From: Escherichia coli
GTDB lineage: Bacteria > Pseudomonadota > Gammaproteobacteria > Enterobacterales > Enterobacteriaceae
Assembly (NCBI RefSeq): GCF_044324875.1
Contig: NZ_CP172185.1
Direction: 5' to 3' (one strand)
Length of the DNA stretch: 64,000 nucleotides
The notes beneath the pieces were generated by a model, which was not told where the DNA came from, did not search any database, and saw nothing but the letters and a program-made list of their open reading frames with translations. How positions within the stretch are numbered: the first letter of the stretch is position 1; each line of letters starts with the position of its first letter. Both the position numbers and the translations under genes were made by a program. Below are positions 28,775 through 43,177 of this stretch, in pieces.

Positions 28775-28915
28775 AAAGCATCAACACCAACCGGAACCTC
28801 CACCACGTGCTCGAATGAGGTGTGTTGACGTCGGGGGAAACCCTCCTGTGTACCAGCGGGATAGAGAGAAAGACAAAGACCGGAAAACAAACTAAAGCGC
28901 CCTTGTGGCGCTTTA
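28775..28915 (+). ncRNA. ryjA: Candidate small RNA convergent with soxR (RyjA-like)
   Basis: From memory, K-12 has the sRNA RyjA in the soxR-yjcD intergenic region. TACAAT -10-like element near 28766; the transcript would end at the shared hairpin. Strand and ends are uncertain. Confidence 0.3.
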
Positions 28916-28920
28916 GTTTT
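28891..28920. terminator. Bidirectional terminator hairpin overlapping the soxR stop codon
   Basis: Perfect 11-bp inverted repeat actaaagcgcc-cttgt-ggcgctttagt with T runs on both strands. Confidence 0.7.
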
Positions 28921-29462: not shown

Positions 29463-29786
29463 ATGTCCCATCAGAAAATTATTCAGGATCTTATCGCATG
29501 GATTGACGAGCATATTGACCAGCCGCTTAACATTGATGTCGTCGCAAAAAAATCAGGCTATTCAAAGTGGTACTTACAGCGGATGTTCCGCACGGTGACG
29601 CATCAGACACTTGGTGATTACATTCGCCAACGCCGCCTGTTACTGGCCGCCGTTGAGTTGCGCACCACCGAGCGTCCGATTTTTGATATCGCAATGGACC
29701 TGGGTTATGTCTCGCAGCAGACCTTCTCCCGCGTTTTCCGTCGGCAGTTTGATCGCACTCCCAGCGATTATCGCCACCGCCTGTAG
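29463..29786 (+). CDS. soxS: AraC-family superoxide-response activator
   Basis: 107-aa ORF (MSHQKIIQDLIAWIDEH...). Confidence 0.95.
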   Translation: MSHQKIIQDLIAWIDEHIDQPLNIDVVAKKSGYSKWYLQRMFRTVTHQTLGDYIRQRRLLLAAVELRTTERPIFDIAMDLGYVSQQTFSRVFRRQFDRTPSDYRHRL

Positions 29787-29788
29787 TT

Positions 29789-31384
29789 TTATTGCCCGCG
29801 CGTTAACTCCCGCGCGGGTAATTGCTCCATCCATTGCATAAACACCTGCGGCGGCATCGCCTTCGCAAAGAACCATCCCTGGCAATAGCGCACGCCGCGT
29901 TTGCGCAGCCAGTTAACCTGTTCCTCAGTTTCGACGCCTTCAGCGATCGTTTTTAACCCCAGACTGTGCGCCAGCTCGATGATGTGTTCCGCAATCAAAT
30001 GACTGGTTTTATGGGTGGTCAGCGTCTCAACAAACGATTTATCGATTTTCAAAATATCGACATTCAATGATTTAAGGTTATGCAAGTTAGAGTAGCCAAT
30101 ACCAAAATCATCAATTGCCACTTCGTAACCAGCCTGGCGGAAAGCCAGAATAATCGGCGTCATTTTGTCGACATCAAGAAATGCATGTTCAGTCACTTCA
30201 AATTTAATTTGCTGCGGACGCACCGCATATTGCTCTGTTTTCTGGTTGGTTCGCGCTATCAACCGTGACGTATGAAAATCGGAGGCCGACAGGTTAATAG
30301 AAACATAGCGATCGACATGTGTTGCCAGGTACACGCCCAGATCGCGGAAGACATTATCAATAACATAATCAGTTATCTGTTCGATCATCCCCTCCTTTTC
30401 TGCCAGCGGAATAAACTCTGCCGGATTCATTACTTGCCCCTGCTCACCAGGCCAACGTATCAATGCTTCAGCGCCGGTACATTTTTCTGTTTTGATATCG
30501 ATTATTGGCTGGTAATAAAGGCAAAGTTGATGTTTTTCGAGGGCGCGTTGCAATTTGCGTTTGGGAGACAAATAGTTTTGTCGAATACGTAGCCAGAGTA
30601 ATAACAGAACAAGACTCCCCAAAATACCGGCGGGTAACGCAAAAATAAGATGATTATAAAAATGCGCTATAAGACGTTGATATGAAGTCGCAACAATGGC
30701 TGCAATCGGGCGTTTTGTCGAATAAACTGTCGCATATAAATAGCCATTTCTTTGTACGGTTAAATCATTCAAATGAATCAGCGGAGAAAACGTTGCTGCC
30801 GAGGCCTCGTTGCTTAACGAGAAAAAGGTTTTTGTCACCGTATCATACACACCCCATTGCAATGTCGGATCATCGGACATCACTTCACTCCAGAAGAGAG
30901 GGTTGATAACCGCCACATAATTTCCCCGCTGCATATAGGTCATTTTATAGCCAGAGAAAAAAGGCGTATCGCGGTAATAATAGATAGAAACGTTAGGTTC
31001 ACGCTTATAATCGGCCGGTGCAATCGTATAGCCGTTTACAGGCGCTATCAGCGATGAGCATAAAAAATGGTTATCACGGGCATAGATCAATTCATTAATA
31101 TAAAGATAGCCACGAATAATATTCAACATTCGCTTTTGATGGGCTGGAGTGCAAACTTGCCCCTGATAGCGTTCAGCAGCATCGCTCACTAAATCTGCCT
31201 GGCGAATGACCAGCTCGGATTTATCCAGCGCCAGCTGAGCAAAAGTTTGGAGCTGGCTATTCACTTCTGATTTTGCCCAAAGGAAGGCAATCCATAGCGA
31301 CAGAATGATGGGAAAGAGAACTAAAAAGATAATGCCCGGCAACGCCAGTAATTGGTGTCGTGCACGATGACTCATTGCTATCAA
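29789..31384 (-). CDS. pdeC: c-di-GMP phosphodiesterase with CSS sensor and EAL domain
   Basis: 531 aa; N-terminal TM and periplasmic domain, C-terminal EAL domain (EALIRW); the K-12 yjcC locus. Confidence 0.9.
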
Positions 31385-31804
31385 TTTCCTGCCTGTTTAT
31401 ACCCGGCCATTGCAAGGTGAAAACCCTGGGCACCGACGTCTTTAGATAAATCTTACGGTATAAATAGCACTTTTGCCTGATTTGAAATTGATACCTTTTT
31501 AATGGTCACCTGAATAAAAATAATTCATTGATATTCAAATTAATTTTCTACAGGAATGCAGAGGCGGCGGGAAGATATGCCCTTAATGCCACTGAAAAAA
31601 CCACATAATCTGTACGGCAATAAAAGTCACGGCCTAATCTGGCTAACAAACAATCAATTGTGATATAGTTCACAAAATTAATGAAACAAACAGAGTGTTT
31701 CATTTTTGTGTCCTGCAAGCCCCGCGATAGCCAGATTGTATCACGCCTCCCGTGAACAACGCCGCGCTGTCCGAGGCATCGGCTCTTTTCAGAGGAATTG
31801 TTTG

Positions 31805-42421: not shown

Positions 42422-43177
42422 ATGAGTGATAACCTGTTAAACAAACTGACCCAACTGAAACTCCCGGCGATGGCCGGGAGCCTGATACGGCAGCGGGAAA
42501 CGCCTCAGACCTACGACGAACTGTCGTTCGAGGAAAGGCTGACGCTGCTGGTTGATGACGAGCTTCTGAGCAGGGAAAACAGCCGTGTGGCACGGTTGAG
42601 AAAAAATGCCGGCCTGAAATACCAGGCAACACCGGAAGGGCTGCGCTATCCGGCCTCAAGAGGTCTGCGGGCTGAACAGATGAGAGAACTGCTGAACGGC
42701 CACTACATAACCCACAGGAAAAACCTGCTGATAACCGGTCCGACAGGATGTGGCAAGAGCTGGATAGCCAATGCGCTGGGCGAACAGGCATGTCGACAGA
42801 AACACAGCGTCCGGTACTGTAGAACCGGGCGATTACTGGAACAACTGGCTCAGGGACGTGTTGATGGCAGCTGGCTGAAATATCTGAAACAGTTGCAAAA
42901 AATACAGGTTCTAATCCTGGACGATCTGGGGCTGGAACAGTTAAGTAACGCCCAGTGTAATGACCTTCTGGAGCTCATAGAGGATCGTTACGGACAAAGC
43001 AGCACGATAGTGGTAAGCCAGTTCCCGGTAGATAAATGGCATGGTCTGATGGAGAACCCAACAACAGCAGATGCCATCCTGGACAGACTGGTACATAACT
43101 CACACCGAGTGGTCCTTCAGGGAGAGTCACTGAGGAAAAATCCCCCGGTAGTGGAAAGCAGCGAAAAAACGCGTTAA
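42422..43177 (+). CDS. istB: IS21-family helper ATPase IstB
   Basis: Walker A GPTGCGKS and Walker B (LILDD); internal ATG of ORF 42179..43177, 17 nt after the istA stop. Confidence 0.85.
   Translation: MSDNLLNKLTQLKLPAMAGSLIRQRETPQTYDELSFEERLTLLVDDELLSRENSRVARLRKNAGLKYQATPEGLRYPASRGLRAEQMRELLNGHYITHRKNLLITGPTGCGKSWIANALGEQACRQKHSVRYCRTGRLLEQLAQGRVDGSWLKYLKQLQKIQVLILDDLGLEQLSNAQCNDLLELIEDRYGQSSTIVVSQFPVDKWHGLMENPTTADAILDRLVHNSHRVVLQGESLRKNPPVVESSEKTR

Follow-up and report, generated by a model that had tools for sequence, protein, structure and literature searches.

The convergent boundary between soxS and pdeC in Escherichia coli was found to carry a single GC-rich hairpin, placed within the last codons of pdeC, and comparison of related genomes indicates that what is conserved at the pdeC tail is an RNA or DNA structure rather than a peptide. 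The hairpin is most likely a 3' element of the soxS mRNA, selected on the soxS-sense RNA, and the boundary with its one shared hairpin probably works on behalf of soxS: Rho would end transcription downstream, and trimming of the transcript would stop at the stem. The pdeC-soxS arrangement and the overlap of the transcripts are already known (standard E. coli annotation; excludon catalogue). What is added here is the soxS-sense hairpin within the pdeC tail codons, together with the argument that this hairpin shapes the PdeC C-terminus, and not the reverse.

Within the analyzed stretch of 64,000 nucleotides (hereafter the window), soxS was located on the plus strand at 29463..29786 (107 aa; stop codon TAG at 29784-29786), based on the list of open reading frames, Pfam searches, and the RefSeq annotation of near-identical genomes and of K-12. 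The pdeC gene (yjcC) occupies 29789..31375 on the minus strand (528 aa; annotated ATG start at 31375 in the list of open reading frames, stop codon TAA at 29791-29789), as supported by that list, Pfam, and the K-12 annotation. Direct reading of the sequence left a spacer of two nucleotides (TT, 29787..29788) between the stop codons, as in the K-12 annotation, the junction being CGC CTG TAG tt TTA TTG CCC GCG on the plus strand. Pfam assigned AraC-type helix-turn-helix domains (HTH_18/HTH_AraC) to SoxS, a CSS-motif (residues 40-243) and an EAL domain (residues 273-505) to PdeC, and the MerR family to the product of the divergent gene upstream of soxS, which is SoxR. The geometry is identical in K-12 MG1655 (pdeC at 4275471..4277057 on the plus strand, soxS at 4277060..4277383 on the minus strand). 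When a 2.6-kb query spanning soxR-soxS-pdeC was compared with complete E. coli genomes, at least 80% of its length was matched in 5412 of 5426, and RefSeq names soxR, soxS, and pdeC in the top matches listed. The sequence-only reading had placed the two convergent stop codons 2 nt apart, and this was confirmed by both the sequence and the K-12 annotation.

Gap lengths were surveyed for 24 convergent CDS-CDS pairs in three 50-kb stretches (150 kb) of the K-12 annotation. The lower half of the values comprised gaps of -19, 2, 34, 35, 39, 39, 41, 43, 50, 52, 54, and 54 nt, and the upper half gaps of 59, 59, 63, 77, 98, 125, 153, 154, 165, 231, 501, and 1372 nt, with a median of approximately 56 nt. 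The usual floor was around 34-60 nt, which is roughly room for one hairpin. The 2-nt pdeC/soxS gap was the second smallest of the 24, tighter only being ymiD/pdeR (-19 nt), and is thus a low extreme, not a unique case. ymiD encodes a small protein of recent annotation and overlaps pdeR.

The tight junction was also followed across the family, by taking one genome per species and locating both stop codons in each of the resulting 80 Enterobacteriaceae soxS loci. Of the 80 loci, 70 have a convergent, full-length pdeC 3' of soxS, and in 65 of these the gap falls between -16 and +15 nt; these family-wide counts refer to 80 related species and ignore kinship. The remaining loci bearing pdeC included one with a gap of +56 nt and four of the Kosakonia type, in which inserted sequence separates the genes by 449-2814 nt. 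Ten of the 80 loci showed no full-length convergent pdeC, and Kluyvera and Pseudocitrobacter have no pdeC at this place. A gap of +2 nt was shared by Escherichia, including E. albertii, and most Citrobacter, a gap of -4 nt by several Enterobacter, Lelliottia, and Huaxiibacter, and a gap of -16 nt by many Klebsiella, Raoultella, Trabulsiella, Yokenella, and Pluralibacter; a value of -13 nt was found in S. diarizonae, and values of +1 to +15 nt in other loci.

The GC-rich hairpin lies at 29791..29822 of the plus strand and was recognized both as an inverted repeat and by folding. Its 12-nt arms (29791-29802, ATTGCCCGCGCG; 29811-29822, CGCGCGGGTAAT) enclose an 8-nt loop (29803-29810), for a total of 32 nt, forming a 12-bp stem with an 8-bp G/C core that begins 5 nt past the soxS stop codon. 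On the opposite strand the same nucleotides are pdeC codons 518-528 (P-A-R-E-L-T-R-G-Q-stop), reaching the first base (T) of the pdeC stop codon and lying past residue 505, the end of the EAL domain. The predicted folding energy in E. coli was -21.1 kcal/mol for the soxS-sense RNA and -18.7 kcal/mol for the pdeC-sense RNA. Stems of 8 or more perfect base pairs, of which 7 or more are G-C, occur in only four hairpins of the 64-kb window, and the junction hairpin is one of these. A REP or other repeated element was ruled out, the hairpin being single-copy in the window, and a known RNA family was likewise discarded, given that an Rfam search at a permissive threshold returned nothing at the junction and matched only SraL (28780-28920). 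It had been claimed from the sequence that the convergent stop codons leave no room for a terminator; this is true of the intergenic space only, as the hairpin sits within the pdeC reading frame.

Conservation of the hairpin was analyzed in an ungapped alignment of 19 sequences from Escherichia, Salmonella, Citrobacter, and Intestinirhabdus. In this alignment 86% of the cells in the hairpin were paired, vs. 33-52% when the 3' partners were slid by 1-3 columns, and two-sided changes were found at three to four stem pairs, with compensatory changes at columns 18-47, 25-40, and 26-39. These compensatory changes are non-synonymous in PdeC, the tail becoming PVSMMQHEQ or PAILTQSGQ; in Citrobacter sp. 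Awk 4, for example, the arms read GCTCGTG and CACGGGC and the PdeC tail is PVSMMQHEQ. Because the paired changes keep the stem and at the same time alter PdeC residues, the comparison argues for conservation of the structure over that of the peptide. The inverted repeat and the 2-nt gap might instead be incidental, kept since the C-terminal tail of PdeC (…PARELTRGQ) is needed as protein, and the P-A and G-Q residues are in fact conserved in the Escherichia and Citrobacter tails. Those constant residues, however, are the ones encoded by the stem arms, and the residues encoded by the loop vary freely. Moreover, the tail lies outside the EAL domain, and beyond the MPPQxFxxW motif it is wholly different between genera in both length and sequence (…QQQPLR, …QAEI, …PPSLK). 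A need for the peptide thus appears most improbable, and the protein-level explanation of the inverted repeat was rejected on the basis of covariation, tail variability, and the persistence of the structure after loss of pdeC.

This persistence was seen in three genomes without pdeC, which retain 35-85 nt 3' of the soxS stop codon, hairpin included: an Escherichia sp. (approximately 1.7 kb deleted), S. arizonae (approximately 1.65 kb), and Intestinirhabdus. The retention of the hairpin after three pdeC deletions could be coincidence. At the family level, the 60 nt that follow the soxS stop codon contained a hairpin with a median energy of -18.0 kcal/mol; the 243 random windows taken from these loci gave -8.6 kcal/mol, again with kinship ignored. 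Genus-specific sequences build this hairpin: in Enterobacter, Klebsiella, and Kosakonia it is found between the WQQQ and MPPQ codons of pdeC, and in Kluyvera and Pseudocitrobacter, both without pdeC at that place, it is a separate stem and a REP-like palindrome, respectively.

The strand on which the hairpin is selected was approached through the G.U pairs, as a G.U pair on one strand corresponds to an A.C mismatch on the complement. In the 9-pair core of the alignment, 32 G.U cells pair only as soxS-sense RNA, vs. 3 A.C cells that pair only as pdeC-sense RNA. When folded freely, the soxS-sense hairpin was the stabler one in 17 of the 19 species, by 2.4-12 kcal/mol, and in many Citrobacter the pdeC-sense hairpin was weak (-5 to -12 kcal/mol), the soxS-sense hairpin being maintained. 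In a strand-symmetric test on 81 loci, the two strands were compared for the most stable hairpin within the 60 nt that follow the soxS stop codon. The soxS strand was the stronger in 57 loci and the pdeC strand in 24; the median difference was -4.1 kcal/mol (+0.7 kcal/mol in random windows of these loci). The G.U asymmetry, the family-wide presence of a hairpin, and its persistence without pdeC are the reasons for which we regard the hairpin as most likely a 3' element of the soxS mRNA. The E. coli hairpin folds well on the pdeC strand too, which counts against this reading.

Overlapping bidirectional terminators of convergent E. coli pairs, such as ynaJ-uspE, were reportedly described by Ju, Li and Liu in 2019. 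If the junction hairpin belonged to this class, polymerases from both directions would pause at it, and head-on and trailing collisions would free the two transcripts at defined 3' ends that overlap, with no need for Rho. Such terminators are non-canonical hairpins between convergent genes whose transcripts overlap (Wang et al. 2023, bioRxiv 10.1101/2022.10.23.513370), and the hairpin analyzed here resembles them: it is positioned exactly at a convergent boundary, it is unlike a canonical intrinsic terminator, transcripts overlap across it, and it folds on both strands in E. coli. It differs from them in that covariation and G.U asymmetry point to one strand, that of soxS, as the target of selection and in that it persists after deletion of the partner gene, in genomes where there is no converging polymerase. 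The much weaker pdeC-sense hairpin of Citrobacter also speaks against this function, as does the report that the collision mechanism works best for highly expressed pairs (bioRxiv 10.1101/2022.10.23.513370). A bidirectional terminator therefore seems to us rather unlikely.

With the hairpin read as an element of the soxS message, the kind of 3' end that it might form was evaluated against the features of known terminators. As expected for a canonical intrinsic terminator, there is a 12-bp GC-rich stem-loop of approximately -21 kcal/mol, but a U-rich tract of 7-8 nt after the stem is absent on either strand, and a consensus scan found no terminator at the junction. For the soxS-sense tail after the stem (UGCUCCAUCC), the d'Aubenton T-score was 0.7-1.3 in E. 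coli and 0.2-2.6 across the 19 species, and for the pdeC-sense tail (CAAUAAAAC) it was 0.21; for reference, the SraL terminator in the same window scored 3.46, and the 90th percentile of random sequences was 1.7. A canonical intrinsic terminator at the junction was rejected, both strands being without a U-tract. In Salmonella the tail (UGUUGUA) is moderately U-rich, so that some intrinsic termination may be possible there.

In the model of Dar & Sorek (2018, PMC6061677) for the steady-state 3' ends of Rho-dependent E. coli transcripts, Rho acts diffusely at downstream positions, after which the RNA is trimmed by PNPase and RNase II as far as a protective stem-loop. The features described by these authors were found at soxS, which has a stable GC-rich stem-loop directly 3', without a U-tract or an upstream A-tract, and a mild excess of C over G downstream. 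The C/G ratio was 1.4-1.65 over approximately 200 nt past the soxS stop codon, near the 90th percentile of the window background, and approximately 1 thereafter, C>G skew being a weak predictor of Rho action. The untranslated soxS-sense RNA antisense to pdeC at 29823..29995 (plus strand) is, by its composition, a candidate Rho-loading (rut-like) region. In contrast to the intergenic stem-loops of Dar & Sorek, that of soxS lies inside the convergent gene, in its last 11 codons. The Term-seq data of Adams et al. 2021, obtained in uninduced cells, list neither 3' ends nor Rho regions between K-12 positions 4276900 and 4277299, and give a 3' end only at the soxS start codon; the absence of ends at the junction may reflect that soxS is barely expressed without redox stress. 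Our search of the literature on the soxS 3' UTR, its terminator, or antisense transcripts retrieved nothing specific to the locus, and neither Blanchard 2007 nor the S. Typhi npcRNA paper mentions anything relevant.

Taken in sequence, the steps of the probable mechanism would be as follows. The hairpin would form at the 3' end of the soxS mRNA, 5 nt past the stop codon. Without a U-tract, the hairpin would probably be inefficient in intrinsic termination, and RNA polymerase would pass it and enter the region antisense to pdeC, where Rho would end transcription diffusely on untranslated, C-rich RNA. Exonucleases acting 3' to 5' would then trim the transcript to the hairpin, which would shield the soxS message. 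The mature soxS mRNA would overlap pdeC by approximately 36 nt, and nascent transcripts by more. The pdeC frame meets no in-frame stop codon until past the hairpin, and for this reason only 2 nt would be left between the two stops; the 11-residue tail of PdeC encoded by the hairpin would be a by-product of the RNA structure. Understood in this way, the junction may represent a small, clean case of an RNA 3'-end structure dictating the C-terminal residues of a neighboring protein, and it illustrates that zero intergenic space need not mean zero terminator.

At the other end of the junction, no recognizable terminator was detected after the pdeC stop codon in the zone that would be entered by pdeC read-through (29463..29788, minus strand, antisense to soxS), based on a terminator scan, T-scores, and composition. 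Over the first ~150 nt past the pdeC stop codon (29788 to ~29640), the RNA that runs antisense to soxS is rich in G (C/G of 0.6-1.0), and is therefore expected to be a poor Rho substrate. Since pdeC has no terminator of its own, its transcripts must run into the region antisense to soxS. That each transcript must enter the other gene had been anticipated from the sequence, and it agrees with both the 2-nt geometry and the published overlap of pdeC and soxS, considered next.

The excludon concept is said to stem from Sesto and colleagues (2013). The pair pdeC-soxS is included among the 165 convergent excludons of MG1655 in Table 1 of the ExcludonFinder study (Sanmartin et al., NAR 2025, PMC12288877), with each pair detected in 50% or more of the 58 MG1655 RNA-seq sets; in most such pairs the terminator lies inside the transcription unit of the neighbor (PMC12288877). 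The locus analyzed here shares both traits, namely 3' transcription that overlaps and a terminator-like structure within the neighboring transcription unit. A functional excludon, in line with the potential antisense interference raised from the sequence, would go further: the tight junction would make each gene a regulator of the other, through either transcriptional interference or the cutting of the sense-antisense duplex by RNase III, coupling the superoxide response to c-di-GMP signaling. The presence of the pair in the published list (PMC12288877) is consistent with this, as are the convergent adjacency (-16 to +15 nt) shared by most of the 80 species, the link to oxidative stress given by Klebsiella YjcC, which affects survival in paraquat, and a marbox (GCAATAAAAGTCACG) bound by MarA between pdeC and yjcB, upstream of pdeC, identified by ChIP-seq (PMC5684230) and found in the window at 31617-31631.

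Convergent excludons are nevertheless defined by mutually exclusive expression or RNase III processing, and the available data on this pair differ. In Klebsiella, a yjcC promoter-lacZ fusion was inducible by paraquat and yjcC mRNA was lower in soxRS mutants (PMC3720812), i.e., yjcC responds in a SoxRS-dependent manner; together with the MarA marbox, this points to co-induction of the convergent genes and not to mutual exclusion. Furthermore, the supplements of the p19 dsRNA study contain no entry for soxS, pdeC, or yjcC, pdeC has been lost or moved in several lineages with soxS unchanged, and synteny by itself is no proof of regulation. No locus-specific experiment on mutual regulation of soxS and pdeC was found in the literature. 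On this balance we judge a functional excludon unlikely. If the overlap did regulate PdeC under superoxide stress, it would constitute a direct link from the SoxRS regulon to c-di-GMP signaling. A more specific arrangement, which we consider quite improbable, is a stress switch in which SoxR activates the strong promoter of soxS, and converging polymerases plus the complementary soxS 3' end (at least 36 nt) truncate or destabilize the pdeC mRNA at its stop codon, with SoxS and MarA acting at the same time at the marbox upstream of pdeC. Such a switch would amount to an incoherent circuit from superoxide stress to the control of c-di-GMP and biofilm, conserved in Enterobacteriaceae as a junction of -16 to +15 nt.

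A second convergent overlap exists in the soxRS locus, between soxR and SraL (RyjA). There, much as at soxS/pdeC, a hairpin extends over the end of the opposing gene, the SraL terminator hairpin (28889-28919) covering the soxR stop codon. Unlike the soxS hairpin, which is without a U-tract, that of SraL is a canonical intrinsic terminator (T-score of 3.46), with A/T tracts that lie partly in the stem.

soxS loci across the Enterobacteriaceae were scanned in one genome per species (80 species), each locus carrying an L-number. The class in which soxS and pdeC overlap by 16 nt (-16) comprised many Klebsiella and Raoultella, as well as Trabulsiella, Yokenella and Pluralibacter (L022, L025, L033, L035, L044, L058 and L071, among others). 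PdeC ended in …QAEI* in most of these loci and in …HAEI* in K. pneumoniae, residues that are the translation of the antisense strand of the last soxS codons; the same 16 nt therefore encode both C-termini. The hairpin after soxS differed in Enterobacter, Lelliottia, Kosakonia and Klebsiella (loci with a differing hairpin included L028-L031, L036-L037, L041, L046, L060 and L069, with others), where it lies 15-30 nt past the soxS stop codon and, within pdeC, between the codons for WQQQ and those for MPPQ, with arms such as UGCUGCUGCCAGG...CCUGGGGCGGCA (-17 to -24 kcal/mol). A hairpin of this type was absent from E. coli, and the pattern resembles turnover of the hairpin found 3' of soxS.

The convergent partner itself was lost or displaced in some genomes. 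pdeC was deleted in Escherichia sp. MOD1-EC7003 (L002), S. enterica arizonae (L005) and Intestinirhabdus alba (L006), the deletions in L002 and L005 having removed about 1.65-1.7 kb; in all three, 35-85 nt past the soxS stop codon remain, directly followed by yjcB and ssb. In three species of Kosakonia and in an unassigned MAG (L049, L052, L055 and L057), soxS and pdeC were separated by an insertion of 449-2814 nt, and caaccatcaaagcagcgttcagggcgagc..., directly after the soxS stop codon, was common to the four loci.

On the other side of the window locus, the sRNA SraL/RyjA was found at 28780-28920 on the plus strand (Rfam RF01408, 153 bits), convergent with soxR on the minus strand (stop codon 28913-28915) and overlapping its last codons; the soxR stop codon lies inside the SraL terminator hairpin (28889-28919). 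The soxRS locus is therefore flanked by convergent overlapping partners at both sides. An abundant RNA 3' end detected by Term-seq (score 43001, K-12 position 4277382, minus strand; Adams et al. 2021) corresponds to window position 29464 (+), which is the second nucleotide of the start codon of soxS.

The marbox GCAATAAAAGTCACG, a MarA site between yjcB and yjcC (pdeC) in ETEC H10407 according to ChIP-seq and in-vitro binding, was present as an exact copy at 31617-31631 (+), upstream of both genes at a distance of ~240 nt from pdeC and ~175 nt from yjcB, which suggests that one of these two genes is a member of the mar/sox/rob regulon.

Besides the soxS hairpin, only three hairpins in the 64-kb window had 8 or more perfect base pairs including no fewer than 7 G-C pairs (14731-14756, 23606-23625 and 42461-42480). 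The second, just past the stop codon of actP (placed by collinear mapping to K-12), likewise lacks a U-tract (d'Aubenton T-score of 0.56).
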